Of a stretch of DNA of 64,000 nucleotides, positions 6,014-41,131 are shown in pieces. Position 1 is the stretch's first letter, and the number at the start of each line of letters is the position of its first letter. The position numbers and the translations under genes were made by a program. The notes under the pieces are model-generated. The model ran no database searches and was not told the origin of the DNA. It saw only the letters and a program-made list of their open reading frames with translations. Location of the stretch: NCBI GenBank assembly GCA_030065095.1, contig JASJDP010000006.1, positions 16,777-80,776 on the forward strand, written 5' to 3'. The stretch is from Rhodobacter sp. Lineage in GTDB: Bacteria > Pseudomonadota > Alphaproteobacteria > Rhodobacterales > Rhodobacteraceae.

Positions 6014-6066
6014 GACGTTACCTGTCTTTGACTTGGCGGCACCTTCCGGGGCCAGAAACGTTACCC

Positions 6067-6088
6067 GGGCGGGACGAAGGCCCCGCCC
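6067..6088 (-). terminator. GC-rich stem-loop between dctP-type gene and uxaC (possible terminator or attenuator)
   Basis: GGGCGGG (6067-6073) pairs with CCCGCCC (6082-6088) around an 8-nt loop. No clean U-tract follows, so the function is uncertain. Confidence 0.3.
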
Positions 6089-6104
6089 AAGTCTATTGTA
6101 AACG

Positions 6105-15033: not shown

Positions 15034-15053
15034 TGAGCCTAAGATGAGCCTAA
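15034..15053. promoter_or_regulatory. tandem TGAGCCTAA 9-mers (11-bp register), candidate integrase arm-type sites overlapping the int start codon
   Basis: TGAGCCTAAgaTGAGCCTAA is read here. TGAGCCTAAaaTGAGCCTAA is read at 58365..58384, at the other island end. Confidence 0.5.
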
Positions 15054-16156
15054 CCGACGCACAGATAAAACGTCTGCGGGTCCCGGAAAAGGGGCAGAAG
15101 ACCTACTTTGACGACGGACTGTCCGGCTTTGGCGTCCGCGTTTCTCAAGGCGGTACCAAGACTTTCATTGCGTTGTGCGGACCTAAACGGAAACGGCATT
15201 CCATCGGGCGCTATCCCAACATGTCGCTGGCCGAAGCACGGGCGAGGGCCAAGAAAATCCAAGCCGAATTTGCCTTGGACAGCCCGATTGAGATTGCCCG
15301 ACCCTCGCTGGGGTTTGACGATGCGCGGCGGATGTTTTTGGCCGACAGCGAAAAGCGGAACCGGCCCCGGACGTTTGATGAATACCATCGCCTGCTGCAT
15401 CGGCACTTTGCGTTCAAGGGCAACTTGGATGAGATCGACAGGCATCAACTGGTGCGGGCGTTGGACAAACTAAAGTCCACCCCGTCCGAACAAAAGCATG
15501 CCTTTGTGGCCATCCGCACCATGATGAACTGGTGCTGCAAGCGCGGACACATTGACGTGTCGCCGGTGCCGCCGCTGACTTTCAAGACCACACCGCGCGA
15601 CCGGGTGCTGACCGCCGACGAATTGCGCACGGTGTGGCTGCGGGCCGAGGACTACGGCTATCCCTTCGGAGCAATTGTGCGACTGCTGATTTTGACCGGC
15701 CAGCGCCGTAGTGAAATCACCAACCTGCGTCGCAGTTGGCTGGAAGCAGACGCCATTACCTTCCCGACCGAGATCATCAAAAACGCGCGCGAACACACCA
15801 TCCCCATGGGCGATATGACCCGCACCCTGATCGCCGATCTACCCGAGCGCACCGACCTGCTGTTTCCGTCCCGCCTGAATGACGAAACGCCTTTCAACGG
15901 TTTCTCCCGCTCTAAACGCACCTTCGACCGGGAAATCGAGATCGAACCCTACACGCTGCACGACCTACGCCGCACCTTCAGCAGCCTCATGGCCAAGCTG
16001 GGCACGCCCATCCACGTGACCGAAAAAATTCTCAACCACACTTCCGGCACCATTAGCGGTGTGGCCGCTGTCTACAACCGCCACTCGTACCAAGACGAGA
16101 TGCGTGAGGCGTTGGCCGCCTATGAGGGCTATCTGCAAGATCTGATGAAGGCCTGA
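15044..16156 (+). CDS. int: tyrosine integrase, P4-like (DUF4102 N-domain plus phage-integrase catalytic domain)
   Basis: 370 aa with catalytic signature elements (TGQRRSE, HDLRRTFSS, LNHTSG...AAVYNRH). Located 133 bp from attL. Confidence 0.9.
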   Translation: MSLTDAQIKRLRVPEKGQKTYFDDGLSGFGVRVSQGGTKTFIALCGPKRKRHSIGRYPNMSLAEARARAKKIQAEFALDSPIEIARPSLGFDDARRMFLADSEKRNRPRTFDEYHRLLHRHFAFKGNLDEIDRHQLVRALDKLKSTPSEQKHAFVAIRTMMNWCCKRGHIDVSPVPPLTFKTTPRDRVLTADELRTVWLRAEDYGYPFGAIVRLLILTGQRRSEITNLRRSWLEADAITFPTEIIKNAREHTIPMGDMTRTLIADLPERTDLLFPSRLNDETPFNGFSRSKRTFDREIEIEPYTLHDLRRTFSSLMAKLGTPIHVTEKILNHTSGTISGVAAVYNRHSYQDEMREALAAYEGYLQDLMKA

Positions 16157-16219: not shown

Positions 16220-16489
16220 ATGAACCAAACACTCTCTGCCCGACTGGCCGAAGCCCAATCCCTCTCGGACGCCGATCAAACCAGGCTGGCCGAGTTCATT
16301 GGTGATTTCATCGATAATGCCAAGAGCGCAGACCAATTTGAGCGCGACATGGCCGACCCGAGTTACCGGGCGTATGTCGAAGGTGCGCTCGATGAGGGCG
16401 AGACGGACAGACAAGCCGGGCGGGTGAAACCCATCGACGAGGCCTTGGACCCGGTGGTTGCTAAGTTCAAAGCCCAGCATGGTCTATAA
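16220..16489 (+). CDS. putative type II antitoxin (ParD-like)
   Basis: 89-aa acidic protein whose stop overlaps the start of the ParE-like gene (ATGGTCTATAA). Confidence 0.55.
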   Translation: MNQTLSARLAEAQSLSDADQTRLAEFIGDFIDNAKSADQFERDMADPSYRAYVEGALDEGETDRQAGRVKPIDEALDPVVAKFKAQHGL

Positions 16490-16778
16490 GGTTCTGATCA
16501 CGGCACGCGCCGAGGCAGACTTCCAACGCTTACTTTTCGAGAACGCCGACCGCTACACGCCGCGCGAGCGCTTGGATTACGTAGAAGCCATCCGCACCAA
16601 ATGCCGAGGTCTGGATTGGTTTCCCAAGCGATCCACGCCAGTGACCATCAAGGGGCTCATGTATTGGCGGCTGACCTTCAAAGCGCACACGGTGTTCTAC
16701 CGGGTGTTCGACGACGAGCGAGTGGTCGAGATCGAGGCAGTGTTGCACTCGGCGATGGACCACACGCGCCGAATTTGA
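16479..16778 (+). CDS. parE: ParE/RelE-family toxin
   Basis: 99 aa from the ATG at 16479. MVYKVLITARAEADF ... HTVFYRVFDDERVVEIEAVLHSAMD follows the ParE pattern. Confidence 0.7.
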   Translation: MVYKVLITARAEADFQRLLFENADRYTPRERLDYVEAIRTKCRGLDWFPKRSTPVTIKGLMYWRLTFKAHTVFYRVFDDERVVEIEAVLHSAMDHTRRI

Positions 16779-17166: not shown

Positions 17167-17883
17167 ATGGGGAAAAAACCTCGGCGCAACGGCGCGGGTT
17201 GGAACAAGGACAAGGCGCAGGGACAAAAGCGCCACTTCACGTTGGACGAGACGATCAAGCTGGCGACACATCTCCAGCGGACGCGGCAGTGGCACGATCT
17301 GGCACTGCTGACGGTTGGGTTGGACACCATGTTGCGGGCCAGCGATCTGCTCAAGTTGACCGTGGCCGACGTGACCTATTCGACAGGGGCGATCCGCACC
17401 GAATTGCACCTGCAACAACGCAAGACCCGGACCACGGTGCAGCCAACCCTCACGGTATCCACAAAGAAGAAAGTGGCGCGCTGGATCGAGCAATCGGGCA
17501 AAACTCGGCGCGACTATCTGTTTACCCGGTTCAAACCGCCGAGCGCCGCGCCGATCTGCCACAAACATCTGGTCAGCCTGGTGAAGGGCTGGGCGGTCTG
17601 GCTGGGCCATCCGCCCGACGACTACGCCGCCCATTCGTTGCGGCGTTCCAAAGCGATAGCCCTGTATCGGGCCGGAGCCCCGATTGCCGAGTTGTCCGAG
17701 GCGTTGGGTCACAAAACTCAAGCCTCAACCATGCTCTATCTCGGCATCACGCAGGAACGCGTGCGCCGGGTCATGCTCAGTCTGGACATGACCAGCGGTT
17801 TTGCGGGTCACTTGGACTGGGGAGAAAACGCCCAGAAAACTTTGCCAGAACAGCCGCTTTCTGGTATAATTTCAAGATTATAA
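17167..17883 (+). CDS. tyrosine recombinase, short catalytic-domain-type
   Basis: 238 aa. DTMLRASDLL (Arg), HSLRRSKA (His-x-x-Arg), GHKTQASTMLYLG (His, Tyr). Confidence 0.75.
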   Translation: MGKKPRRNGAGWNKDKAQGQKRHFTLDETIKLATHLQRTRQWHDLALLTVGLDTMLRASDLLKLTVADVTYSTGAIRTELHLQQRKTRTTVQPTLTVSTKKKVARWIEQSGKTRRDYLFTRFKPPSAAPICHKHLVSLVKGWAVWLGHPPDDYAAHSLRRSKAIALYRAGAPIAELSEALGHKTQASTMLYLGITQERVRRVMLSLDMTSGFAGHLDWGENAQKTLPEQPLSGIISRL

Positions 17884-20250: not shown

Positions 20251-21099
20251 ATGACAGAGAACAACCTCGAATCTCAATACAAAGACTGTTTTGTAACTTT
20301 TTTCGACATTCTCGGCTTCTCTGAGCTGCTTAGGTCAAGAAGTCCGACACACATCGCAGAAATTCTTTCAGTTTTTAGAGCACTATCGATCAATGGAGAA
20401 GAACCTACGGCAATTGCCAATGCAAGCTTTCAGCCTCCTGCAAACGGCACTAGAATCGAAATTGTATCAGATGCGATTGTTCGGGTCCGGCCAAATAGAA
20501 TCGATCCGCTGACAAAAATGTCTGAGCTCTTCGACGAAATGATAGTCTTGAAGGAGATCCAGATTGGCTGCTTGCAAAAAGGCATTTTAGTCAGAGGGGC
20601 GACGACACTTGGGTCAATGTACATCGATGATGACCCCTCTGGGCCGATTTTTGGGCCTGCGCTTGCCGAAGCGTATCAGATCGAAAGTCGTGAAGTGATT
20701 TACCCGCGTATCGCCATTCACGGTGACGTTGTGGCTCGATTCAAACACGAAAAGAATCCGCTGCTCGCTGAATCATATCAGGTCGATGTAGAGATGCTCA
20801 AACTCCTACTGGCACGCGATGGCGCCGGCCTTTATTTCATCGATTATCTCCGTGTAAATTTTGAAGATCAGAACTGGAGCGCTGCCGAAACTTTTGATTT
20901 CTTGCGAAAGCACCGGAGTCTAATCCGTGATGGATTGAGAAACCATCATGGCAGTATAAGACGAAAATTCTCGTGGCTGCAAAACTACCACAACACATCG
21001 ATTGATCACGCCATACAACGCGGAATAGGTTCAGAGAGCTACCCGGAAGCAGGCGAGGTCAGCGCGTCAGCCTTGCATGCTCTCAAGATAGACGACTAA
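20251..21099 (+). CDS. class-III nucleotidyl-cyclase/GGDEF-like palm-fold protein (non-canonical)
   Basis: 282 aa in an AT-richer region (about 40% G+C in the 60-nt line at 20281). Ordered motifs FVTFFDILGFSELL, IEIVSDAIVRV, LVRGATTLGSMY and FGPALAEAYQIES mirror FxDIxGFT, GDxxM, RIGIHTG and GxxVNxAxRxE. The Asn/Arg positions look substituted. Confidence 0.45.
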   Translation: MTENNLESQYKDCFVTFFDILGFSELLRSRSPTHIAEILSVFRALSINGEEPTAIANASFQPPANGTRIEIVSDAIVRVRPNRIDPLTKMSELFDEMIVLKEIQIGCLQKGILVRGATTLGSMYIDDDPSGPIFGPALAEAYQIESREVIYPRIAIHGDVVARFKHEKNPLLAESYQVDVEMLKLLLARDGAGLYFIDYLRVNFEDQNWSAAETFDFLRKHRSLIRDGLRNHHGSIRRKFSWLQNYHNTSIDHAIQRGIGSESYPEAGEVSASALHALKIDD

Positions 21100-21787
21100 A
21101 GACGGTTCCGAATAGGTCAGCCTGCAATTCCCCATTGTGAGAAAGACCATAGTAAGAATCTATCTGGCGATGAAACTCTTTTTGCCCGCCGTAACTTGGA
21201 TGCCGAACTGTGCAGTATGCCATATCCACGGATTCGAGTGCTTTGGCCGCATCATTTCCGATCGTCACCACGCGTTCAACTGGTATAAGCGCTAGAACAG
21301 AAGTCAAGAAATCAAGCCCAACGTTGCGCTCTCGTCGGGTATGCATCCGGTTCGATTGAGGCTTATCCGACTCGTGCGGATGAAACGGAAAGACGTTCCA
21401 GAAGAACAGTTTTCGCGAAACTCGGGACCGAGCAAGATGAATCTCCGTGGCCGTACGCTCGCGCATGACCGGACCGACCGTAGCTTTCCTCAGCGTTTCA
21501 ACTTCGATCGATTGCGCATAGCCATCCAGCGAGGCCTCGTCAACGAGCGCGACTCCCGTCCGGCGTCCGCCACGCCATCCCAAATCGCGCCCGATCCAAA
21601 CGTCAACCTCATCTGCCTCAGCGCAGGCAATCAGAACCGCTCGCAGATTCTCGCGACGGACCGTGAAGCTGACTTCCACGTCCACATATTCGCAGTTCAT
21701 TGCCCACGGGTTGAAGACGCGTTCCGTTTCATAAGTCGAGAGTTCGTCGATGAATGCGTCTATTGCCGCTCGTAACCGCCTCACCAT
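21083..21787 (-). CDS. uracil-DNA-glycosylase-superfamily protein
   Basis: 234 aa from the ATG at 21787, which overlaps the upstream stop (ATGGTGA). IGRDLGWRGGRRTGVALVDE resembles UDG motif A. FFWNVFPFHPH...SNRMHTRRE and a C-terminal VRHPSYGG resemble UDG motif B (HPS). Confidence 0.6.
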   Translation of the reverse strand: MVRRLRAAIDAFIDELSTYETERVFNPWAMNCEYVDVEVSFTVRRENLRAVLIACAEADEVDVWIGRDLGWRGGRRTGVALVDEASLDGYAQSIEVETLRKATVGPVMRERTATEIHLARSRVSRKLFFWNVFPFHPHESDKPQSNRMHTRRERNVGLDFLTSVLALIPVERVVTIGNDAAKALESVDMAYCTVRHPSYGGQKEFHRQIDSYYGLSHNGELQADLFGTVFSRLS

Positions 21788-22371
21788 CGTCCAGGTTCGT
21801 TCACGTATCCACGCTCCGGCAGCCCCACTAACCATGCTTCTATCGCAACCAGGTCGTCTTCCGCAAACCTGCATTTGTGCCCCGGCCCTTTTTTTACGAC
21901 GCATCGTAGATGTTCTGGGAGCGGCAGCGCCGATTTGCCGTAGTACGCGAACTCAGCACTGATCAGCACTCTTTCCGTTGTACCAGTATCTCGTTCGCGA
22001 TTGGCAACGCTCAGGCTTCCGTCTTCTTCACTATGAAAGGAGTCCAGCTGCTGGAATGTACCGTCTTTTCCGGTCCGGTAGATGTTGTCGCCGTAGCGGT
22101 GCATCATACTGCCGCGCATGTTCGGCTTCTTGCGGGCAAATCGCGGGTCCGACCAATACTGGTCGAAAAGGATAATCTCCTCGACCTTCATCCAGTAAAC
22201 GAGGCGGCCTGACGCTCCGATTTCCGCCGACCCGGTGCCAACAACAAGGTCACCGACTTCGGCAGGTTTCCGTATCTGGGGTTTGCAATTCGCGAGCGTG
22301 CAATACCCCCAAAAAGGATTCGGCGCAAAACCATGGTCGTGTTGGACCACATAAGAGTAGAGCCGGGTCAC
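21781..22371 (-). CDS. Nmad2-like (nucleotide-modification-associated domain 2) protein
   Basis: 196 aa with a GTG start 3 nt after the upstream stop. The N-terminus LYSYVVQHDHGFAPNPFWGYCTLANCKPQIRK matches my memory of proteins annotated as the Nmad2 family. Needs HMM confirmation. Confidence 0.5.
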   Translation of the reverse strand: MTRLYSYVVQHDHGFAPNPFWGYCTLANCKPQIRKPAEVGDLVVGTGSAEIGASGRLVYWMKVEEIILFDQYWSDPRFARKKPNMRGSMMHRYGDNIYRTGKDGTFQQLDSFHSEEDGSLSVANRERDTGTTERVLISAEFAYYGKSALPLPEHLRCVVKKGPGHKCRFAEDDLVAIEAWLVGLPERGYVNEPGRW

Positions 22372-22374
22372 GAC

Positions 22375-22791
22375 TTAGCACTTGTTCCGCTTTGTTTTGG
22401 GTGCCGGACTGGGTTCTCCACCTGGCTCCTCCCAAACATCTTTCTCGCCCTTTAGCGTGACCGCAAGTTCAGGTGACTCAATATCCACGGTCACCCCATA
22501 CTTGGCCACACCATCGGGTACTCCGGCGACGCCGCCCTCCTTGCCGTGCAACCAAATGCACACGACACGGATGCCTGCGCCCGCAAACGCTTGCATCCTT
22601 TCATTCACGGCGGCTTCGTCTTCGGACGCAACCGGCAGACCGACGACACCAATGTCCGCATTCGGATCGAGGCTCGAGACATCTGAGGGGACGTCAGGCA
22701 CGGGCTCATAGCCCGCCGCTCGAACCGCGGCTTCAATCGCGGCGCGATCGGTAGCGTCAAGGTGTTCATTAAAAACATAGGCATTGGCCAT
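22375..22791 (-). CDS. hypothetical 138-aa alpha/beta protein (Rossmann/TIR-like?), basic C-terminal tail
   Basis: ATG preceded by AAGG, 11 nt after the upstream stop. No confident family. Confidence 0.5.
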   Translation of the reverse strand: MANAYVFNEHLDATDRAAIEAAVRAAGYEPVPDVPSDVSSLDPNADIGVVGLPVASEDEAAVNERMQAFAGAGIRVVCIWLHGKEGGVAGVPDGVAKYGVTVDIESPELAVTLKGEKDVWEEPGGEPSPAPKTKRNKC

Positions 22792-22802
22792 GGATTCGCC
22801 TT

Positions 22803-23456
22803 TCAGTTTCCAGATAGTGCCGTTGCAATCAGCGCGGCAATCGTGGCGCCGATCACTGCACCCGCTACCGCAACCCCTGAGGTTGCGTAGTAGAGTTGAC
22901 GAGCAAGATGATCGATACGCCTATTCAACGAGTTCAACGATGCAGTCTCGGTGGGAATCAAACCCATGAGTTCCGTGTCGATCTCTCGATATCCCGGCTT
23001 TTTTCGTTCGTAGTCTTTTGTCGCCTGATCGAGACGTGCCAACCAGATCAAGAAAGCGGGCTGGTCGCAGCGAACCGTCACCGTTTGAGGGCCAGCATTG
23101 AAAACCGCGAACATCAACTTGCCACTATACCCGGGGTCGACGTGAAACCCGCTCACGTTAACGAGGCCACTATTCTTTAATCCGCTCTTCATATTTATGA
23201 AGCCGAGTAAATCGTGAGGGAGGTTGATGAACTCGCGCGTAGGCAGGAAGGCGAACTGACCCGGCGGAATCACAATTGGCGCACCCTGATGTAGCCTTTG
23301 TGTGAGCCCGGGCTTGCGTGTGTCCCGTCCTTCAGGGCTTACGAACGCCTCGTCACCGACCCGCATCGTATAGGCCGCGCAGTCGACGCGTTCAGGGTCA
23401 AACGGAGTGATCCACGCCGCGCCATGTTCGGCGATTATGTCGCCCGAAAGAAACAT
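22803..23456 (-). CDS. dUTPase/dCTP-deaminase-superfamily protein with C-terminal coiled coil and TM anchor
   Basis: 217 aa. Matches Dcd/Dut blocks: PPGQFAFLPTREFINLPHDLLGFINMKSGL and HVDPGYSGKLMFAVFNAG. The C-terminus is SGVAVAGAVIGATIAALIATAL. The start overlaps the upstream stop (TGATG). Confidence 0.7.
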   Translation of the reverse strand: MFLSGDIIAEHGAAWITPFDPERVDCAAYTMRVGDEAFVSPEGRDTRKPGLTQRLHQGAPIVIPPGQFAFLPTREFINLPHDLLGFINMKSGLKNSGLVNVSGFHVDPGYSGKLMFAVFNAGPQTVTVRCDQPAFLIWLARLDQATKDYERKKPGYREIDTELMGLIPTETASLNSLNRRIDHLARQLYYATSGVAVAGAVIGATIAALIATALSGN

Positions 23457-23941
23457 CAGGTCTCCGGCGCGTGGACTGGCCGGCGCGCGAGTTGTTGGCG
23501 TCTTTCGTTGACCAGAGCATCGAGATCGAGACCGGCGACCGAGGCGCTACGCGCGATCCACTCGACTAGGGCAGCGTTCGCATCTAAGGCAATTGCCCGG
23601 AATTCCTCCAGATGATCGATCTTCTCACACGCATCTGCGAAACGCCCCGCTTGGTCAGTAAAGGTCAGGTCCGATGGTTCCTCTTCTTTCTCATTCTCGT
23701 AATTGAAGTCTGGCAGGGCTTGGTTGAGCGCGTTGGCGGCGCTAAGTGCAACCAGAAACGCGTCTACAAATGTTTCCGCCCTGCTCTTGACCTCGGTACT
23801 GCCGCGAGCAAAGCGCCCCGCGTACTTTGCGAAGTGCAATCCATAGTGCTTCAGTCGATCCGATCGCGAGAGCGATACAATGTCGAAGTGGTTGCGGAGA
23901 TCGTGTTCGTGCTGGGCTTGTTGCCGAGTTCGCATCAACAT
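23456..23941 (-). CDS. hypothetical all-alpha protein (weak MazG/HisE-like resemblance; function unassigned)
   Basis: 161 aa, helical by composition. AETFVDAFLVALSAANAL resembles the second MazG helix, but the EExxE motif is not evident. Confidence 0.4.
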   Translation of the reverse strand: MLMRTRQQAQHEHDLRNHFDIVSLSRSDRLKHYGLHFAKYAGRFARGSTEVKSRAETFVDAFLVALSAANALNQALPDFNYENEKEEEPSDLTFTDQAGRFADACEKIDHLEEFRAIALDANAALVEWIARSASVAGLDLDALVNERRQQLARRPVHAPET

Positions 23942-23965
23942 GATCGGTATCCTTCAATCCAAAAT

Positions 23966-24244
23966 TCACTGAGCCGCGTAGCGCAAGCCAAGCTTCGCTA
24001 GAAGCTCGGTGGATTGGCGGCCTGACAAGTACGGACCCCTTGGTGGGAGATCGGCCATGTCGGCAGGTTCCACATCTGCGAACTTCGCTCCCGTCGAGAT
24101 CTCTGCGATCCGGCCGCCGTTCACGCCAAACCAGGCCGCTATATCGTGCTGTCGATCACCACGGGCGAGCATCCCCTTAACGATCGCTGCATCGCTTTCA
24201 TCCAAACGAATTCCGCTAGGCTCTGCCCTAAAAACCGTGTTCAT
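23966..24244 (-). CDS. small HTH-like DNA-binding protein
   Basis: 92 aa from the ATG at 24244 (MNTVFRAEPSG...). AAIVKGMLARGDRQHDIAAWFGVNGGRIAEI looks like a helix-turn-helix. The longer ORF to 24475 is rejected. Confidence 0.5.
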   Translation of the reverse strand: MNTVFRAEPSGIRLDESDAAIVKGMLARGDRQHDIAAWFGVNGGRIAEISTGAKFADVEPADMADLPPRGPYLSGRQSTELLAKLGLRYAAQ

Positions 24245-24479
24245 TATACTCTCCGTAGTGGCTCGAGTCCGGGTTTCCTCCATATATTGTGGCGGACTCC
24301 AAGTATTACAACCTCCGTCAAGGACACCACAAACCCGAGAATTCCGGATCGATAGGTTCGATCGCCCGCGACAGCCGCACATAGTTTGTCCGCTTCGCGC
24401 AATCGGACCGCATACAGACTCCGTGACAAGGGGTGGCGACCCGTTTCGCAATTCCTGTTCCTGCTCATTGCCCACCCGG

Positions 24480-24698
24480 TTACTTTTCCCTGACGGTCGT
24501 CCTCGGATTTGCCTTGCCGTGTTTCGCGGTTACGAAGCGCCCACTGATAGCGCTGCGATAGCTCCCACCGGTCGATCCGCTCTTTCCCGGCGCCTCTTTC
24601 ACTGTCGTCCGAGGATGCGACTTCCCATAGGCTTTCGTGACGTAGCGGCCTGAAGTCGCGCTGCGATAACCGCCGCCGACCTTCCCTTTCCCTGCCAT
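24480..24698 (-). CDS. 72-aa basic protein made of two tandem about 30-aa repeats
   Basis: GGYRSATSGRYVTKAYGKSHPRTTVKE is followed by GSYRSAISGRFVTAKHGKANPRTTVRE. ATG at 24698. Confidence 0.5.
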   Translation of the reverse strand: MAGKGKVGGGYRSATSGRYVTKAYGKSHPRTTVKEAPGKSGSTGGSYRSAISGRFVTAKHGKANPRTTVREK

Positions 24699-24757
24699 CG
24701 ATCTGCTCCTTTTCGTTGCATTTTGGCGGAGTTGGACTAAGAGTGGTTCTGAGTCCT

Positions 24758-24776
24758 TATGTAGACTATCTACATA
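24758..24776. promoter_or_regulatory. inverted repeat TATGTAG-ACTAT-CTACATA, candidate operator of the Xre/RES module
   Basis: Read directly. Lies about 48 bp upstream of the antitoxin ATG (24824), in the divergent intergenic region. Confidence 0.4.
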
Positions 24777-24823
24777 GAGACTCTCTGGGCCGTCAAGTCC
24801 AAAAGCGGACAACAGGAGGATCA

Positions 24824-25216
24824 ATGCAACCACATACAGATTCTGCGCCCGAACACGGCGCGGGAGCGGTCAGGATTCCAGCTGTCATGGATGCTTTCGC
24901 AAAGCTTGCCGAGGATTGGGAACTCTCGACCGATGAGCAAATTACACTTCTTGGTTCGCCCGGACGCTCAACATTCTTCAAGTGGAAGAAGTCCGGAGGC
25001 AATCTCCCACACGACACGATCGAGCGCATTTCTCATCTGCTTGGTATCTACAAATCGCTGCAGATCGTCCTTCCCGATCCCGAAGCGGCAGATGCGTGGG
25101 TCAAAAGACCGAACGCGTTCTTCGGCAACCGCAGCGCCCTCGATGTGATGCTCGAAGGGCACGTGGTCGATATCTATAAGGTGCGAGAATACCTCGATGC
25201 ACAACGTGGCGGGTGA
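24824..25216 (+). CDS. Xre/MbcA/ParS-type antitoxin (DUF2384 toxin-binding domain)
   Basis: ATG preceded by AGGAGGA. C-terminal WVKRPNAFFGNRSALDVMLEGHVVDIYKVREYLDAQRGG is typical of the family. Confidence 0.8.
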   Translation: MQPHTDSAPEHGAGAVRIPAVMDAFAKLAEDWELSTDEQITLLGSPGRSTFFKWKKSGGNLPHDTIERISHLLGIYKSLQIVLPDPEAADAWVKRPNAFFGNRSALDVMLEGHVVDIYKVREYLDAQRGG

Positions 25217-25943
25217 CTGTAACGTCAAAGATGTCGGTGACATCTTCTTCGTATTGATACCCTCACGGTTTCCGCCTGTGCCGCTCTACCGGCGCATCGC
25301 GGATGGTTACGACGACGACATCGCAGCTGTCGCCGAGCTTCACAATCCGCGCCTGAGAGAGAAACAGCGCGTGCTTGGAAATGCGGGCATCGCCGTTGAT
25401 GAGACATCCCCGCGTTTTCAGAATTGGAACCATGCACCCTTCACGTATTCGAACCCCGAAGGCAGCTGGTTTTTTGATCGGTTCGTGCGCTGTTTGGAGA
25501 TGTCGCAAGACAAGCAGACCGCCCTGGCGGTCTCCGTCGCAAAGAGAGAGCGCTTTCTTAAGCGGACAAAAGAAGCGCCCATTGGGTTGGACATGCGGAT
25601 GTTGAGCAGAAAGGTATCTGGCGCGTTTCTGGATGCGCAGTCGGTTCCCGCTGAGCTTCCACAGGAAGAGCGACGCAAGCTTGGAACGGAGCTTCTTGCT
25701 CGTGCAAAGCGCGATGCGCTCGCGGGCGTGCTGTTTCGATCGATCGAGCGACCAAGCGGCACCCGCGTTTGTGTACTAGATGGCGATGTGCTTGATCGGG
25801 CCATCCAGGGAGAGCACTTCAGATATGTCTGGGATGGCGATCGGGTGTCGACTCTCTACGCCTTCGACAACTCTGGCGGCGATGAAGACAACCAGATCGA
25901 CCCTCGCGATCTCGGCGGGCACACGGACATCCTTGCTGCTTAG
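25197..25943 (+). CDS. RES-domain toxin (NAD-targeting family)
   Basis: 248 aa, overlapping the antitoxin end by 20 nt. QTALAVSVAKRE and VLFRSIERPSGTRVCVL fit the Glu and Ser blocks. The Arg block alignment is less clear. Confidence 0.7.
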   Translation: MHNVAGDCNVKDVGDIFFVLIPSRFPPVPLYRRIADGYDDDIAAVAELHNPRLREKQRVLGNAGIAVDETSPRFQNWNHAPFTYSNPEGSWFFDRFVRCLEMSQDKQTALAVSVAKRERFLKRTKEAPIGLDMRMLSRKVSGAFLDAQSVPAELPQEERRKLGTELLARAKRDALAGVLFRSIERPSGTRVCVLDGDVLDRAIQGEHFRYVWDGDRVSTLYAFDNSGGDEDNQIDPRDLGGHTDILAA

Positions 25944-26871: not shown

Positions 26872-27813
26872 ATGCTTCACATCGACCTCGCCGGGTTCGA
26901 GGCCTATTGCCGTGACCAAAAGGGGCTCAGCGACCACAGTCTGCGCGCCTATCGCCAAGATTTACGGGCGTTCAACGCCTTTGTGGCGGATAGTACGCCC
27001 AGTGCAAAATTCTCGTCCGAGCTCGTGATTGCCTATCAACGCCATCAGCGAGACGTGAAATCGGCCAGCCCAGCCACCATTCGGCGCCGAATGGTGACTT
27101 TGCGCGCCTATTGCACCTGGCTGGAGCGGCAGCAATCGGGTTTCGCATCACCGTTCTCGGGTCTCGAATTGGACCTTCGTGTGCCCCAGCGTCTGCCACG
27201 CCCTGTAGACCGCCCAACGCTATCCGCCGTGTTTCGCGCCGCGCCACATTGTAGAGATGTCACAGAGTGTAGGGGTGTGGATGTTCGCGCAAATTCGGTG
27301 AGGCAGGGCCAGGTGACGGGATTGATCGTCCGCCTGCTAGTGGTCACCGGTCTGCGCATCGGCGAACTTACCCATACCCGCTTGCGCGACGTAAACGGTG
27401 CCGGGGCGCAGATAAGAGTGATGGGCAAAGGCAGCCGTGAACGGACGGTCTACGTCACCAATCATCGTCTGTTGGAAGACTTTGCGGTTTATCTCAGCCA
27501 ACGTCGTCAGGACGGGACACCAGACAGCTTCGTGTTCTTGAACACACGCGGTGGGCGCTTGACTGAAGCGGCCTTCCGCAAACGCCTACGCCAACTGTCC
27601 GCCGACCTTCAAATCGCGCCTCATATCACGCCCCACCGCTTCCGGCACTCCGCGGCTACTCTGTTGATCGAAGAGGGCGTCGATATCCGTCTTGTGCAGC
27701 GGCTTTTGGGGCATGCGAGCATCTCAACGACCGAAATTTACACCAAAGTGTCTGACAGTTCGCTGTTTCAGGCCATCGAGCACGCCGACACGCTGGCGAA
27801 GGTCGATTCCTGA
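26872..27813 (+). CDS. tyrosine recombinase, XerC/XerD-like
   Basis: 313 aa with an N-terminal SAM-like domain (LSDHSLRAYRQDLRAF) and catalytic blocks (TGLRIGEL, PHRFRHSAATLL, LLGHASISTTEIYT). Confidence 0.85.
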   Translation: MLHIDLAGFEAYCRDQKGLSDHSLRAYRQDLRAFNAFVADSTPSAKFSSELVIAYQRHQRDVKSASPATIRRRMVTLRAYCTWLERQQSGFASPFSGLELDLRVPQRLPRPVDRPTLSAVFRAAPHCRDVTECRGVDVRANSVRQGQVTGLIVRLLVVTGLRIGELTHTRLRDVNGAGAQIRVMGKGSRERTVYVTNHRLLEDFAVYLSQRRQDGTPDSFVFLNTRGGRLTEAAFRKRLRQLSADLQIAPHITPHRFRHSAATLLIEEGVDIRLVQRLLGHASISTTEIYTKVSDSSLFQAIEHADTLAKVDS

Positions 27814-27838: not shown

Positions 27839-29065
27839 ATGGGACAACACGAGGAGGGGTTTTCGAACGCCGGGAATTACGTTGCTCCAGGGCGGATCGC
27901 CGCAAAGATCATCTGCCGGGTTTTTCAAAGAAACATCAAAGTCGGGCAGTTGTTCCTGCAATTCCCGACAAACAGTATTTCTATCGGACAGGGCAATCCC
28001 GTTTGCTCGATCGAGCCGCCAACGTTGTGGCGCTTTGCAAGGATGGTAATGCGCGCCGACCTTAACGTCGCCGACCATTACGTTCGGGGGTACTGGAATT
28101 GCGATATGAAAGATCTGTACCACTTACTTGTCATCCTCTTTCAAAATCGCGATTCAAATCTTTGGCGATACTTTAGCTATGTGAACGAGAGAAACCCTCT
28201 TCGTGATTCGGTCATCTACCGCTTATTCCCAAAGTTAATAAACAAAAATACTGCATTTCACTACAGTTCCAATACAGACTTCATGAGAATTGTGCTTGGA
28301 GATACACTTCTCTATACGTGTGCATTTTTTGACTCTGACGCCGACAAACTTGATAATGCACAGCTGAACAAGGTCCACACCGTCGCAAGTAGGTTGCAAA
28401 TAGAGCCGTCTGATGATGTCCTGGAGCTTGGTTGTGGTTGGGGAAATACGGCTGAGATCATCAGCGAGGATTATAAGTGCAAAGTAACAGGTGTTAACCT
28501 TACGTCATCCCAGATTGATTATGCAAAAAAGAACTCTGGGCATGATACTCACTTCATAAACTCCAATATATTCGACTTTGATCCCGGTAGAGAATTTGAC
28601 CGAATATACTCTATTGGAATGCTCGAGCATATCGGGGTTGGCCTTCACTCTCGCTTCTTTGCCAAAGTTGCGCGTTTGTTGAAGCCCGGAGGAACGGCGC
28701 TAATTCACTGTATCGTCAGGGAAAAACCAGGCGCAACAAACGCGTGGATTGACAGTGCAGTTTTTCCCGGAGGGTATATTCCTCTCATATCGGATGTCGT
28801 GAGGTCGATTGAACAGAACCGTATCTCGATAAAGGACATATTCATACATCACAAATCCAACTATTTCCGTACATTAAAATCTTGGAGGGAGAATTTTTTC
28901 TCATCCGAGAAAGCCTTGCGAGAAATACTTCTTCGAGATCTCCAGGCGCCGGAGGTTGAGAAGATAATGAGAATGTGGAATTTTTACCTAGCGGTCAGTC
29001 AGCTTTCCTTCTCGCCTGAGCACGGAACGTATCAAACCGCGCAGTTCAGCCTGCAAAAGAATTAA
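27839..29065 (+). CDS. cyclopropane-fatty-acyl-phospholipid-synthase-family SAM methyltransferase
   Basis: 408 aa, mostly AT-rich. ADHYVRGYWNCD, YTCAFF, VLELGCGWG, SIGMLEHIG and LKPGGTALIHCI match the CMAS family. Confidence 0.8.
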   Translation: MGQHEEGFSNAGNYVAPGRIAAKIICRVFQRNIKVGQLFLQFPTNSISIGQGNPVCSIEPPTLWRFARMVMRADLNVADHYVRGYWNCDMKDLYHLLVILFQNRDSNLWRYFSYVNERNPLRDSVIYRLFPKLINKNTAFHYSSNTDFMRIVLGDTLLYTCAFFDSDADKLDNAQLNKVHTVASRLQIEPSDDVLELGCGWGNTAEIISEDYKCKVTGVNLTSSQIDYAKKNSGHDTHFINSNIFDFDPGREFDRIYSIGMLEHIGVGLHSRFFAKVARLLKPGGTALIHCIVREKPGATNAWIDSAVFPGGYIPLISDVVRSIEQNRISIKDIFIHHKSNYFRTLKSWRENFFSSEKALREILLRDLQAPEVEKIMRMWNFYLAVSQLSFSPEHGTYQTAQFSLQKN

Positions 29066-30074
29066 AAACTGCTTTTCCGTTATCATAAACCATCGAAAGC
29101 AGTATCGAATTGAATATGATGATGAGTGCTGCATTGCAGTAGCCGAAGCCTGCCGGTTGCGGGGTCTGGAAGGGGCTTAACGAGACCAGTTGAACATACT
29201 TTCTGCAAAACTCGTCGATGCCCATCCGGATCAACGCCCGCTTGACCCAATACGCAAAAGTCAAAAAGATACGGTAGACAAGCAAGACAGTAATCAATGC
29301 AATTGTCGGAAAGAAAACAGTTCCCGTAATGATAAGCTGACCTGGAAATGGCTGTCCAATCATAGTTCCGGATTCGAGATTTCCGACAAGTGCATATGGC
29401 CATAAAGCCAGATCAAATATAGTTGAAAATAGGTCTTCAGAAAGCTCTATATTGTTTTCGGACCGTTTGTAGTACCACAGCACGCACGAGATAAGCTGAT
29501 TGGGAGCGAATACGATAGTTGCCACGAACATATCAATTGTGCCGTATCTAAAAATCTTTCCTGTTTCAGATATTTTCCTCAAATGTCTAAAAGTATAAAA
29601 TATAGATATATAGTCAGTGATCGCATTTGAAAAGATATAGACCAGAAGATAGAAGATCGCATTGAGATTTTGCCTGTCGTAGTTATAGAAAACCAGTGAC
29701 GCGTCCTGATTGTAGAGGGGGCGTGTTAACAGTATTCCGAATGTAATGTATATGCAGTAAAAAAGGACGAACCTTCGAAATACGAAGTACTTATTGTCCC
29801 GCATCCATGTAGTGTCGACGCCGCTTAGGGGAGTTCGCTCTCGCTTTTCGCCGCGATAACCTATGACGAATATGATAAACTTTTGAATGCTTGTCGCGAG
29901 CAACTTAATGGCATCGGATTTCTCGCCAGAGTCAATATCCCCGTCTTGTTGGTTCAATGCTGTATAAAGTTGAAGCGAGTATCGAATTGCCACCAGCAGA
30001 ACCAATAGAAACAAGAGCCTTGCCACTATCACGACACCGGCCCACACGTCGTACACATATAAATCCGTCAGCAT
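29046..30074 (-). CDS. polytopic membrane protein, unknown function
   Basis: 342 aa with many hydrophobic segments. About 32% G+C in the 60-nt line at 29401. Its 3' end overlaps the methyltransferase 3' end by 20 bp. Confidence 0.6.
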   Translation of the reverse strand: MLTDLYVYDVWAGVVIVARLLFLLVLLVAIRYSLQLYTALNQQDGDIDSGEKSDAIKLLATSIQKFIIFVIGYRGEKRERTPLSGVDTTWMRDNKYFVFRRFVLFYCIYITFGILLTRPLYNQDASLVFYNYDRQNLNAIFYLLVYIFSNAITDYISIFYTFRHLRKISETGKIFRYGTIDMFVATIVFAPNQLISCVLWYYKRSENNIELSEDLFSTIFDLALWPYALVGNLESGTMIGQPFPGQLIITGTVFFPTIALITVLLVYRIFLTFAYWVKRALIRMGIDEFCRKYVQLVSLSPFQTPQPAGFGYCNAALIIIFNSILLSMVYDNGKAVFNSFAG

Positions 30075-30377
30075 AGTTCCGGGTTATCGTTACTGATTTT
30101 CGATCTGCATCTGACACCAACTTTCCGACTCGGATCAACCCCGAATGTTCCTTAGGAAAACATGAAGATTGGATGAAGTCGGCGGGTCACTTCCAGCCCA
30201 ACCGCCCGTCTGTCGTTCTGACCCCCGATCATGATCACTTTGACCCATGCAAACAGGTTGCGTTGTCTTTCGGGGTGCGGTGTCGAGGCCGGGCATACAA
30301 GCCTCAATACCCAGATGGGTAAGGTCTTCGCCGCGTCGGTGGGCGGCGGAGCCAGTGCTGGTGCGGCGCTCGGCAAG

Positions 30378-30407
30378 ACCCCGGTGCCCCTGTAACCGCA
30401 CCGGGGT
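30378..30407. other. 10-bp-stem inverted repeat ACCCCGGTGC-(10 nt)-GCACCGGGGT, candidate oriT or regulatory hairpin
   Basis: Read directly. Lies 206 bp upstream of the T4CP-like gene start. Confidence 0.45.
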
Positions 30408-30612
30408 AAACGCTGGTGCTGGCCAAGCTCCGTGCCACCCCCGTGACCACCATGGAAACCACTTCCAAAACCACCGCGATGGCCACGGTCAACACCTCAA
30501 TGAAGACCAAGGTCGAGCCCACCGCGTAAACTCCCTACACCCGCTCATAGAGCGGCTTCGCGCCACCCAGAATGTTTCACAAGAACGGGAGCGGCGCGTT
30601 ACTCTGAGGGCG

Positions 30613-32037
30613 ATGCCAAGACGCCGATACGGCTACCGTTACTCCCGCATGGACCCCAAGCATGTCCGTGACTTTTTTTACCGCCACGCCTTGTCCGTCC
30701 GGCTGATGACCTTGTTTTTCGACGGGCTGTGGTGGCTGATCTCAAAAGGGTGCCTTCGCCTGATACGTTGGATCGTATCGTTGGTCCGATTTCGATTGCC
30801 CGCCTGGTTCTGGATCGACGAACGCTTGCGGCGGCAGCATACCTTCGTGGCCGGGCGCACCGGCGTCGGCAAGTCCGTGCTGCTGCACAACCTGATCCGG
30901 CATTATCTGGTTTGGAACCGCAAACCCTCGATTGTCTTGCTCGATCCGCACGGCGATCTGGCGCGTTCGGTGGTGCGGGACCGGGCGTTTCGGCGGGGGG
31001 ACCGGCTGGTCTACATCACGCTGGACGGCATCGCCGGAGCCCACGTGCATCTCAATCCGTTCGATCTGCCCATCCGCTCCGAACACCGCCTCAACCGCGC
31101 CCAGGTCCAGTTCTCCGGCGCGATGGAACAGATCGTCGGTCAACCCTTCTCGCCGGTGCAACGCACACTGATCCGCGCCTGCCTTGCGGTCATGCTGCAC
31201 AAACGCGGGGCCACGTTGGTGGACCTGGTACGCCTCTTGGCCGATGAGCAAAACGCCGATCTGCTGCGCTACGGCCAAGAGCAACTGCCCAACGCCATCG
31301 ACCGGCAGTTCTTTGTCGGCAGTTTCGGCAAGTCCCACTATCGCGCCAGCAAACAAGCGCTGGTCGCGCGCCTGACCGATATCGTGCGAGATCCCTATGT
31401 TCGTCGCTTCGCCTGCCAGAAGAGCAGCTTCGATCTGGGGGCCGCGCTCGATAGCGGCAAGGTGTTGGTGGTCTGCTTCGACCCCTCCAAGCAAGGCGCC
31501 GACACCATCCGTGCCATCGGGCAGTTGCTGAATGCTGCCATCCTCAGCCACGTGCTGGGGCGCACGCCGCACAAACGTCACCCCATCCATCTCTTCGTCG
31601 ATGAATGCCAATACTTCGTTAGCCCGACCATCGCTGACATCCTGGGCGAAAGCCGCAAATTCGGTCTTTACGCCACGCTGGCCACCCAACGGGTGGAACG
31701 GCTCGATCCTGACCTACTGGACGCCATTCTGGGCAATGTCGGCACGCTGTGGATCGGCGCCTCGCGCCACGTTACGGCAGAGAAGCTGGCCCGAGAAACC
31801 GATCTCAAGCCTGACGACATCCGCGCTTTGCCCAATCTCTGGTTCTACCGGGTGGCCAATGAACGCCCCGTCGTGAAGCAGCGTCTGCCCTTCATCGGGC
31901 TTCGCTACGCCATGCGCCCCAAGGATTGGGCGCGGGTCACCCGGCAACAGGCCAAGCGCTATTACCGCAAGCCATCCAACAACGACGGTGCCGATCCATC
32001 CAATCCGCCCAATTCCTGGGCACCCTACTTCCTGTAA
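30613..32037 (+). CDS. T4CP/TraD/FtsK-HerA-like P-loop ATPase (module A)
   Basis: 474 aa from the ATG at 30613. N-terminal hydrophobic segment, Walker A GRTGVGKS and Walker B IHLFVDECQYF. The ORF-track extension to 30247 is rejected. Confidence 0.7.
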   Translation: MPRRRYGYRYSRMDPKHVRDFFYRHALSVRLMTLFFDGLWWLISKGCLRLIRWIVSLVRFRLPAWFWIDERLRRQHTFVAGRTGVGKSVLLHNLIRHYLVWNRKPSIVLLDPHGDLARSVVRDRAFRRGDRLVYITLDGIAGAHVHLNPFDLPIRSEHRLNRAQVQFSGAMEQIVGQPFSPVQRTLIRACLAVMLHKRGATLVDLVRLLADEQNADLLRYGQEQLPNAIDRQFFVGSFGKSHYRASKQALVARLTDIVRDPYVRRFACQKSSFDLGAALDSGKVLVVCFDPSKQGADTIRAIGQLLNAAILSHVLGRTPHKRHPIHLFVDECQYFVSPTIADILGESRKFGLYATLATQRVERLDPDLLDAILGNVGTLWIGASRHVTAEKLARETDLKPDDIRALPNLWFYRVANERPVVKQRLPFIGLRYAMRPKDWARVTRQQAKRYYRKPSNNDGADPSNPPNSWAPYFL

Positions 32038-32891: not shown

Positions 32892-33013
32892 GCCCAAGTC
32901 ACCGGCTGATGGTACGCCGCCTCCAGGCATTGACGCCGACACTGACGCCAAGCTTCGACTGGCCGCCAGCCTTTTGCTTGACTCGTTTCTGGCCATGGAT
33001 TCAATCAAAGATA

Positions 33014-35075: not shown

Positions 35076-35828
35076 ATGAAAAGAAGGTTTGCGGTTGGCT
35101 TTGTCGTTTTGCTAGTACTGGGAGCAGCCGGGATGGTGGTCTGGTCCGCCGACCGACCCGCAATTCCACCAGTGCCAACTGCGACGCCCGAGCGCAATGT
35201 TGACACGCCCCCGATAGCCGATCAGACCTCATCGCAACGGAAATCACCAGTGTTGGGTAAGGAAATCCCCGGGCTACCAGAACACTGCACCGACAAGTTG
35301 ATCTCAAGGTCGGGTTGTGACGGGATGACCGAGATTACCACCAATCAAGGCAATACCTACCGCTTGGTTGAAATTGGCAATCAGTGTTGGTTTGCCGACA
35401 ATCTCAAGGAAATACCGACGAACCCTGGAGGTTGGTATGGTTACTATGGCAATGCCACTGAAGAGCGAAATTTAGGCGAAGGTCTACTTTATACGTGGAA
35501 GGCAGCAATGAACGGTGAAGCCGAGGAGGGAGCACGTGGAACCTGCCCAATTGGTTGGCATATACCTATAGAATGTGAACTAAGAATGGTTGAAAATAAT
35601 TTAGAATTTGTACCCAGCTCATTTCCAGGTCGCACGACACTTGACGCCGAGGGGGAAATGCAGATCAAGACATCATCTTTCACGGGGCGTGGCTATTTGT
35701 TCTACCTATGGTCGTCCACTGATGCCCAAGACGGACCTTCGGTTCTTTGGCAAGTCCGGCGACGTTCGGCCAGTGTCATCAATGGTAATCCTAAAAACAC
35801 TTATTCTGCCCGTTGCATCAGAGATTAA
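35076..35828 (+). CDS. FISUMP (Fibrobacter succinogenes major paralogous) domain protein with N-terminal anchor
   Basis: YRLVEIGNQCWFADNLK, GLLYTWKAAM and CPIGWHIP follow the TIGR02145-type pattern as I recall it. Confidence 0.7.
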   Translation: MKRRFAVGFVVLLVLGAAGMVVWSADRPAIPPVPTATPERNVDTPPIADQTSSQRKSPVLGKEIPGLPEHCTDKLISRSGCDGMTEITTNQGNTYRLVEIGNQCWFADNLKEIPTNPGGWYGYYGNATEERNLGEGLLYTWKAAMNGEAEEGARGTCPIGWHIPIECELRMVENNLEFVPSSFPGRTTLDAEGEMQIKTSSFTGRGYLFYLWSSTDAQDGPSVLWQVRRRSASVINGNPKNTYSARCIRD

Positions 35829-41121: not shown

Positions 41122-41131
41122 GGATCGTCTC

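Follow-up and report, generated by a model that had tools for sequence, protein, structure and literature searches.

The stretch of DNA analysed here, the window, comprises 64,000 nucleotides of a metagenome-assembled genome of Rhodobacter sp. and carries seven co-oriented open reading frames (ORFs) on the minus strand, g1–g7. Five of them, g3–g7, make up a compact cassette around a TIR-family protein and an Nmad2 protein. The product of g6 is 100% identical to the NCBI entry QNJ44_05060 and that of g3 to QNJ44_05075. All seven ORFs that had been read in an earlier note, made from the letters of this DNA, are present:

24480-24698, minus strand: g1, 72 aa, a basic two-repeat protein with an isoelectric point (pI) of 11.1
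23966-24244, minus strand: g2, 92 aa, a weakly helix-turn-helix (HTH)-like protein
23456-23941, minus strand: g3, 161 aa, an all-alpha protein
22803-23456, minus strand: g4, 217 aa, a protein of the dCTP-deaminase/dUTPase fold with a C-terminal transmembrane (TM) helix
22375-22791, minus strand: g5, 138 aa, by its profile matches a degenerate TIR-family protein with a C-terminal Cys tail
21781-22371, minus strand: g6, 196 aa, Nmad2, with a GTG start
21083-21787, minus strand: g7, 234 aa, a putative divergent member of the uracil-DNA glycosylase (UDG) superfamily

The four junctions within g3–g7 are, on reading of the sequence, exactly as that note had described them. Read on the minus strand, g3 and g4 share TGATG with a 1-nt overlap at 23456, a gap of 11 nt (aaggcgaatcc) separates g4 from g5, the TAA stop of g5 is followed after 3 nt by the GTG start of g6, and the start of g7 overlaps the stop of g6 by 7 nt in ATGGTGA (21787-21781). 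The GTG start of g6 is confirmed by its homologues, which start at the same residue. The same junction geometry is kept in an Acetobacteraceae metagenome-assembled genome (locus L002) and in Halomonas sp. HL-48 (L004), where the junctions are TAATG, a 3-nt gap, and ATGGTGA or ATGGTAA, although the stop codons differ from those of the window. Since identical geometry is found in distant taxa with different stops, the coupling is a conserved trait, beyond chance. Further upstream, 24 nt containing GAAGGA lie between g2 and g3, and 235 nt between g1 and g2. In a scan for promoters and terminators no promoter came up, terminator-like sites were rarer than expected from shuffled sequence, and the result was uninformative on operon limits. 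The G+C content of the cassette is about 0.55–0.57, compared with 0.63–0.67 at the window ends.

Loci encoding Nmad2 were analysed by tblastn, all-against-all ORF clustering and family hidden Markov models. The Nmad2-anchored set consists of the best 80 of 279 Nmad2-encoding stretches from a one-genome-per-species collection, plus the window, giving 81 loci that are not phylogenetically independent, so that Fisher values calculated on them are indicative only. The 279 stretches span Proteobacteria, Acidobacteria, Nitrospirota, Chloroflexi and archaea. Within this sample the conserved unit is g3–g7 (21083-23941, minus strand), that is, five genes and not seven. Colinear g3-g4-g5-g6(-g7) arrangements were found in L001–L004, L021 and L027, a rearranged one in L036, and the exact five-gene order of the window in three metagenome loci reached from an independent g3 anchor (L095, L096 and L100), which are its closest relatives. 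The cassette thus recurs in Acetobacteraceae, Halomonas and metagenomes, and the gene-neighbourhood check suggested in the earlier note has found synteny in other genomes. Its fullest form, in Mesorhizobium, reads HTH_3, M78, ..., g3, DCD, TIR-like, Nmad2, MazG_C, UDG; the HTH_3-M78-C1-like upstream set of these loci is not present in the window.

The former description of the locus as a seven-gene operon was overstated with respect to g1 and g2, which are set apart from each other by the 235-nt gap and have no tblastn counterpart in any of the 80 related loci; for this absence, both were rejected as members of the system. By sequence comparison they appear to be local additions outside the conserved cassette. 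The two repeats ascribed to the basic g1 protein are borne out by direct reading, as two copies of YRSAxSGR(Y/F)VT...GK..PRTTV(K/R)E with 17/25 identical positions, and g1 has no family match in Pfam, PADLOC, NCBIfam or PHROGs. The HTH-like character of g2 is in line with a match to KorA, but this match is weak and below the cut-off (7e-4), and four weak plasmid matches were uninformative. Sister loci carry HTH_3 and Peptidase_M78 regulators in place of g2, which may itself be a local regulator of the cassette.

The g5 ORF had previously been left as a '138-aa protein', its family unrecognised. It matches the PADLOC model of ThsB (4.3e-5), and its family profile matches the TIR structures 8fz9 and 1eiw (2.8e-5) as well as ThsB 9uv0. 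The profile finds 1892 proteins, the best 120 of which all carry TIR_2 and/or ThsB_TIR Pfam domains, which makes g5 a degenerate member of the TIR family. Via graded intermediates, it aligns in register with the TIR protein of DS-4, an anti-phage system of E. coli described below, and the aligned region includes the terminal Cys. Both C138 (codon given as 22375-22377) and G125 are invariant in 28/28 aligned g5 members, DS-4 included. Of the best matches listed, 120/120 have a Cys among their last 13 residues, and 67/120 end with it; tails such as ...RNKC, ...RYSC and ...HPCG are found in TIR proteins upstream of Nmad2 (including those of L088, L090 and L091 at 6001-6495). When Cys-tailed TIR proteins were picked independently, Nmad2 came next in three of three cases, while five of the six other TIR proteins of the same loci have no such tail, the exception being located within an Nmad2 cassette. 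The 'SHxH' and 'WxxWE' TIR motifs are decayed in the clade of the window, where the Cys tail is retained, and among the closest relatives of g5 the TIR Glu position varies between E, H, R and G. The catalytic motifs decay in several clades, but the tail does not; selection seems to act on the tail of g5 and not on NADase chemistry. Additional TIR proteins and LD_cluster2 (SLOG-type) proteins stand beside some of the TIR-Nmad2 cassettes (L088, 3778-4638 and 9048-10267; L090, 7189-10564), a hint of connections with further defence modules based on nucleotide signalling.

The neighbouring g6 protein matches the Pfam family Nmad2 (PF18753) with an E-value of 3e-66, covering 1-196 of 200, and is 48% identical to the Nmad2 of DS-4 over 149 aa. 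Its AlphaFold2 model has a predicted local distance difference test (pLDDT) score of 89.8. The top Foldseek matches of this model are weak (E at least 5e-3, TM-score 0.36–0.49) but consistently PUA-like, namely, the ASCH structure 5y6b (prob 0.93), YTH, EVE/THYN1 and the VcaM4I reader domain; a second structure library returned weak matches to viral ASCH/EVE proteins. Comparison of Nmad2 with PDB sequences gave no PUA-like match at the sequence level and a single spurious match, to APC5. We predict from the structural model that g6 adopts a PUA-like (ASCH/EVE/YTH-like) fold. Residues D12, C24, C29, K30, R34, D95, N96, H113 and D128 are at least 94% conserved across the 81 loci in Nmad2 proteins with and without a TIR partner, whereas G47, W73, T129, T132 and W180 are specific to the TIR-associated ones. 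A zinc site shared by the terminal Cys of the TIR protein and C24/C29 of Nmad2 was considered and is not supported, because C24 and C29 are equally conserved without a TIR partner and are therefore intrinsic to Nmad2. A full-text literature search for 'Nmad2' returned irrelevant matches only. In a 77%-identical copy of the cassette on an IMG/VR contig (L084), the Nmad2 gene (1088-1674) is split into two frames at about 1369, by a frameshift or an assembly error.

The first gene of the unit, g3, has no Pfam, NCBIfam or PADLOC family. It has at least 725 homologues, and a Pfam domain was found in 0 of the 120 listed. The AlphaFold2 model of g3 is all-alpha (pLDDT 91.8), and its best Foldseek matches are the dimeric dUTPases 5myi (prob 0.75) and 4dlc (TMq 0.50), which are weak (E 0.33). 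The sole sequence-profile lead is a weak match to the MazG-like structure 5ie9 (E 0.63); weak as each of the two leads is, they point in the same direction. The invariant residues comprise an E106-x-x-D109-H110 motif together with K39, R43 and R46. This ExxDH motif is present, but basic residues stand where all-alpha nucleoside triphosphate (NTP) pyrophosphatases have their first 'ExGE'-type motif. Judging from the fold and profile matches, g3 is probably a divergent all-alpha NTP-pyrophosphatase of the MazG / dimeric-dUTPase superfamily.

In 11/11 genome loci g3 is succeeded by g4, and the same is true of nearly all metagenome loci that extend far enough. It matches Pfam DCD (7.6e-18), and among solved structures its profile finds 8y1w/9ln0 (2e-23), 4xjc (9e-17) and E. 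coli Dcd (3e-9). Identity with the canonical Dcd was nevertheless rejected, because the score against the Dcd equivalog TIGR02274 (73.5 bits) is under the cut-off of 92.8 and A117 of g4 aligns with the catalytic E138 of E. coli Dcd, a position that is Ala or Ser family-wide; N100 aligns with H121. On these residues, g4 cannot be a canonical dCTP deaminase. Its best structural relatives, 8y1w/9ln0, are labelled 'dCTP deaminase', are 155 aa long and have Met at the Glu position, and the g4 profile scores the 1xs4 chain, with Ala there ('IVLAFYN'), at 42.9 bits versus about 40 for chains with Glu (2j4h, 'IVLEFYN'). Within dUTPase motif-3, D107 is invariant and position 110 is Y or F in 12/13 sequences (Tyr110 in g4), and K90-S91...K94 replaces RSSxxR in the phosphate-binding motif. 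A C-terminal hydrophobic helix (residues 195-213, Kyte-Doolittle score KD19 2.22) is kept in 13/13 family members. We predict g4 to be a nucleotide-binding protein, possibly of the pyrophosphatase type. The deoxynucleoside triphosphate (dNTP)-depletion defences that Tal and colleagues are said to have described in 2022, with dCTP deaminase and dGTPase systems, resemble the window in placing a nucleotide-pool enzyme in a defence setting. Their dCTP deaminase has what we take to be a zinc cytidine-deaminase fold fused to a kinase, unlike the trimeric DCD fold of g4, and identity with this defence was rejected, as g4 matches no PADLOC model and has no DCD catalytic Glu.

The trimer fold of g4, nucleotide-binding and bearing a conserved TM helix, and the membership of g5 in the ThsB-type TIR family would both be accommodated if a nucleotide signal made by the TIR protein activated membrane-anchored g4 as a pore or toxin, leading to abortive infection. 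We consider such signalling very unlikely, given that the clade of the window has lost the catalytic motifs of TIR proteins, that a scan of ten proteins from the cassette and its flanks matched no ThsA/SLOG-type receptor, and that g4 is absent from most TIR-Nmad2 loci. Likewise, the g5 family shares with Thoeris its ThsB_TIR/TIR_2 matches and differs from it in the lost catalytic motifs and in having Nmad2 as partner. Thoeris identity was rejected because ThsA was not found among those ten proteins and the clade has not conserved the TIR Glu.

The last gene, g7, scores 20.3 bits (6e-4) against Pfam UDG, under the gathering score of 24.3, and its profile matches the family-4 UDG structures 1l9g/1vk2 with an E-value of 0.005; a Mesorhizobium homologue that is 45% identical to g7 carries a confident precomputed UDG match. 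Among 19 aligned sequences, D68 in the motif 'RDLGYRGGRRTG' is present in at least 90%, being replaced by Glu in L033, whereas N131 in 'WNVFPxHPH' and H196 in 'VRHPSYGG' are invariant. We infer that D68, N131 and H196 correspond in role to the catalytic residues of UNG, and assign g7 as a divergent UDG-superfamily protein and putative pyrimidine DNA glycosylase. For g3, g4, g6 and g7, the fold assignments of the earlier note (an all-alpha protein, a DCD fold with a TM anchor, an Nmad2-like protein and a UDG-superfamily member) agree with the results given here.

Across the 81 loci, a g5-family gene lies directly upstream of Nmad2 in 63. Nmad3 is found in 11 loci, all of them without a TIR partner. 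In these, Nmad2 is followed by an overlapping Nmad3 gene (L061, L064, L067–L069, L071–L074, L076 and L080), which forms a second core pair in Nitrospirota, Acidobacteria, Deltaproteobacteria and one Heimdallarchaeote metagenome-assembled genome. The remaining neighbours of Nmad2 in the set include MazG-MazG_C (48 loci), a 5-hydroxymethyldeoxyuridine (5-hmdU) DNA kinase (36), the g7 family (23), HTH and M78 regulators (19), g4 (14), g3 (11, with g4 always present) and ThyA-like genes (7). The 5-hmdU DNA kinase and the UDG-like gene share one locus (Fisher 2.7e-6, indicative because the loci are related), and it looks as if they fill one interchangeable role. Five of the 63 TIR-Nmad2 loci have neither gene, and two of these five end at a contig edge soon after Nmad2. 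The MazG-containing architecture accounts for 15/23 UDG-containing loci and is the commonest UDG-containing relative of the cassette. Taken by gene content, g3–g7 is assembled from three recombining modules. A Cys-tailed TIR-family protein with Nmad2 behind it makes up the invariant core of the family; this core is partnered with enzymes acting on free pyrimidine nucleotides (MazG-MazG_C, ThyA-like, or g3+g4) and also with one enzyme for uracil-type bases in DNA, either the 5-hmdU DNA kinase or the UDG-like glycosylase.

The g3-g4 pair also occurs apart from the core. Among metagenome loci anchored on g3, it was found alone at L106, L109, L110, L153 and L160, and with the UDG-like gene only at L124, L125, L133, L151, L154 and L155. 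At L092 (5393-7320), again without TIR-Nmad2, it follows a protein of DUF1643, which we take to belong to the UDG clan, and at L094 (3383-7136) it stands after an M78 / C1-like / 275-aa set and is ended by an integrase; other distant g3-g4 pairs occur with the DNA kinase or with TIR-Nmad2. Such arrangements would be expected if g3-g4, g5-g6 and g7 were independent small systems, mutually dispensable and merely packed together, and the quite different partners of TIR-Nmad2 elsewhere, as well as the existence of stand-alone UDG-like defence glycosylases, argue in the same direction. We rate a composite locus of this kind as unlikely, though worth serious consideration. The coupled junctions join all five genes with a geometry that is kept across distant taxa, the partners are non-random, always being pyrimidine-nucleotide enzymes plus a DNA kinase or glycosylase, and TIR-Nmad2 loci with no DNA-level enzyme are restricted to the five mentioned above, two of them cut by contig ends.

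Two relatives of the cassette have been described. DS-4 (working id NTTI) of E. coli is a validated, replicated anti-phage system with ThyA-like, deoxynucleoside monophosphate (dNMP) kinase, 5-hmdU DNA kinase, TIR and Nmad2 genes (DeWeirdt, Mahoney and Laub, Science 2026; PMC13092281). The paper describes no mechanism for DS-4; one raw entry in it gives a roughly 10-fold drop in the efficiency of plating (EOP) of lambda, with small plaques (PMC13092281). As in the window, where a 3-nt gap separates g5 from g6, a ThsB-type TIR protein ending in Cys is immediately followed by Nmad2, and this core pair is accompanied by pyrimidine-nucleotide enzymes. The accompanying enzymes differ: DS-4 has the ThyA-like protein, dNMP kinase and 5-hmdU DNA kinase, none of which was found among the seven cassette-region genes and immediate flanking genes scanned, whereas the window has g3, the DCD-like TM protein and the UDG-like protein, its architecture in the family HMM scan being g3-g4-g5-g6-g7 and nothing more. 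In addition, the TIR protein of DS-4 retains the catalytic motifs that g5 has lost. The second relative, a MazG/MazG-C + NMAD + UDG system, is a prediction without phenotype (Fig. 6F, S12B in PMC13092281), as is a dUTPase-containing system in the same paper; an earlier bioinformatic prediction is credited there to Burroughs et al. (NAR 2015, as cited in PMC13092281). It has the TIR-like protein, Nmad2 and the UDG-like family in common with the window, and g7 clusters with its UDG-like genes. MazG-MazG_C (PF18722) is present in L001, L003 and L081 and absent from the window cassette, which has g3+g4 instead; the Mesorhizobium loci carry g3-g4 together with MazG-MazG_C.

Beyond these relatives, Brig1 and Brig2 are stand-alone defence glycosylases of the UDG fold that act against modified phage DNA, Brig2 being directed at thymidine-hypermodified phages (bioRxiv 10.1101/2025.10.29.685425). 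Compared by description, they resemble g7 as UDG-fold proteins on mobile DNA linked to non-canonical pyrimidines in phage DNA, but they work as single proteins, whereas g7 belongs to a translationally coupled set with four further genes. PADLOC v2.0.0 named no system in the window, its sole match among the cassette proteins being that of g5 to ThsB, with none for g3, g4 or g6. The statement that the locus belongs to no named system therefore stands as far as PADLOC is concerned; the combination itself is not unknown, given the DS-4 core pair and the predicted MazG/MazG-C + NMAD + UDG system. On present comparisons, the gene combination is already known in kind, and the five-gene variant of the window appears to be new.

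Every architecture joins the core pair to free-nucleotide enzymes and to one enzyme for uracil-type bases in DNA, and action at two levels is therefore proposed for the window. We give roughly even chances to the statement that g3–g7 is a mobile, translationally coupled defence module acting on uracil-type nucleotides both in the pool and in DNA; this estimate applies to the statement as a whole, and the separate steps are less probable. According to this proposal, g3 and membrane-anchored g4 would bind or hydrolyse a non-canonical pyrimidine dNTP of the invader, e.g., dUTP or a 5-substituted dUTP, and g7 would cut the matching uracil-type base out of the invader's DNA, so that abasic sites remain. 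Nmad2, with the fold of a 'modified-base reader' (PUA-like) and its conserved Cys, His and Asp residues, might join with the TIR-like protein in recognising or processing this base or lesion. Having lost the NADase motifs, g5 would probably work via its invariant C-terminal Cys tail. Host DNA, containing thymine, would be spared. The general character of the cassette as nucleotide-centred, mobile and defence-type, which the earlier note had put forward, is supported. Genes for AbiE, a type II methyltransferase, CapP-like M78 proteases and conjugation/recombination are among the neighbours seen in 11 sister loci.

A more specific role for the tail can be imagined, in which the Cys of g5 is a putative thiol nucleophile and Nmad2, using a base-flipping PUA-like fold, attaches the TIR-like protein covalently to invader DNA as a DNA-protein crosslink. 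The UDG-like glycosylase would then make an abasic site and the 5-hmdU DNA kinase an activated 5-phosphomethyl-uracil, both of them electrophiles in the target DNA. Such crosslinking would account for the decay of the TIR motifs with the tail kept, for the interchange of kinase and glycosylase, and for the constant position of Nmad2 beside a Cys-tailed protein; even so, we regard it as a long shot.

The free-nucleotide enzymes could also be used offensively, shifting the dNTP pool upon infection so that phage DNA incorporates uracil or another abnormal pyrimidine during replication and is then shredded by the UDG-like glycosylase, with an outcome resembling abortive infection. A DCD/dUTPase fold and a UDG fold are indeed found within a single coupled operon, and the ThyA-like and dNMP-kinase genes of DS-4 and of several sister loci would serve to make an abnormal nucleotide and not to remove one; the lambda entry for DS-4 fits such a mode of action as well. 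For the window, however, this scheme is improbable, as g4 is without the deamination Glu (E138 replaced by A117), its dUTPase-type residues would lower dUTP and not raise it, and the cassette has no nucleotide-synthesising enzyme. Deamination of dCTP and uracilation followed by glycosylase attack, one of the two roles envisaged in the earlier note, is accordingly weakened by the Ala or Ser found at the E138 equivalent throughout the g4 family.

The second role envisaged there was hypermodification, in which modification by the cassette would let island or host DNA escape restriction. The name Nmad2 refers to an association with nucleotide modification, the cassette is located on a mobile island, and the kinase present in 36/81 loci is that of phage thymidine-hypermodification pathways, as indicated in passages of PMC5889632 and PMC8989533. 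These pathways and the TIR-Nmad2 family share a toolbox of ThyA-like, dNMP kinase, 5-hmdU DNA kinase, MazG and dUTPase/DCD-like proteins. The TIR-Nmad2 loci, by contrast, are cellular or on mobile elements and not on phages, and the window lacks the modifying enzymes of the phage pathways: the cassette contains no hydroxymethylase, DNA kinase, aGPT-Pplase or other transferase, and a glycosylase would be an odd companion of a modification pathway. Nmad2 of the window clade gave 0 matches in 50,697 phage records, and was found at 4 loci in 2.9 million viral contigs (IMG/VR) and on 18 plasmids, i.e., this clade is essentially absent from phage genomes. Moreover, DS-4 cloned alone protects against phage. 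A self-protective modification is weakened by the missing enzymes, by the near-absence from phages and by its anti-phage relative, and we hold it to be quite improbable.

Several observations weigh against the proposed two-level defence. The five-gene variant is known here from sequence, and the fold assignments of g3 and Nmad2 depend on weak structural matches (Foldseek E 0.33 for g3; E 6e-3 and TM-score 0.36–0.46 for Nmad2), while g7 is under the Pfam UDG cut-off. As g3-g4 also occurs without TIR-Nmad2, separable systems may have been brought together in the cassette. The neighbours of the 11 sister loci include housekeeping genes too, and the relatedness of the 81 loci leaves the Fisher values indicative. 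Lambda DNA is unmodified. The possession of nucleotide-synthesising enzymes by DS-4 and its action on lambda, as far as the single entry goes, fit poorly with a pure attack on modified DNA (PMC13092281).

The cassette sits in a composite mobile island that occupies about 14–35 kb of the window. Its flanks carry the two toxin-antitoxin (TA) modules that had been read on either side of the operon, and the island further includes three tyrosine integrases, a serine recombinase and a type IV coupling protein (T4CP)-like ATPase:

24716-25943: Xre/RES TA module, cassette flank
16220-16778, plus strand: ParE toxin and small upstream ORF, cassette flank
15044-16156, 17167-17883, 26872-27813, 32909-34840 and 30247-32037: the three tyrosine integrases, the serine recombinase and the T4CP-like ATPase

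Adjacent to the cassette, a 282-aa ORF (20251-21099, plus strand, G+C 0.48) runs towards g7 and shares 17 nt with the 3' end of that gene; the sole match of this ORF is phrog_23933, a phage family of unknown function (2.6e-22). A low-G+C patch (0.43–0.45) spanning 27839-30074 contains a cyclopropane-fatty-acid-synthase-like methyltransferase (27839-29065) and a 342-aa ORF without family (29046-30074, minus strand). Downstream of the island lies a gene for a two-partner-secretion (TPS) exoprotein of 1819 aa with a TPS domain and Ig/cadherin repeats (35818-41277, minus strand).

Of the TIR-Nmad2 systems, which are found in hundreds of genomes, DS-4 is the single member with a phenotype, and a mechanism has been worked out for none. 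The five-gene cassette is compact and free of hypermodification enzymes, and would offer a simpler entry to the function of the core pair. It further brings in an unannotated module of two genes, one for g3, from a family of at least 725 proteins, and one for a membrane-anchored DCD-like protein, and the family as a whole presents two testable rules, namely, the C-terminal Cys that is invariant in the TIR partner and the choice between a 5-hmdU DNA kinase and a UDG-like glycosylase. If the proposed action at two levels is true, bacteria would police the uracil-type nucleotides of invaders both in the pool and in DNA, thereby countering thymine-replacing phages.

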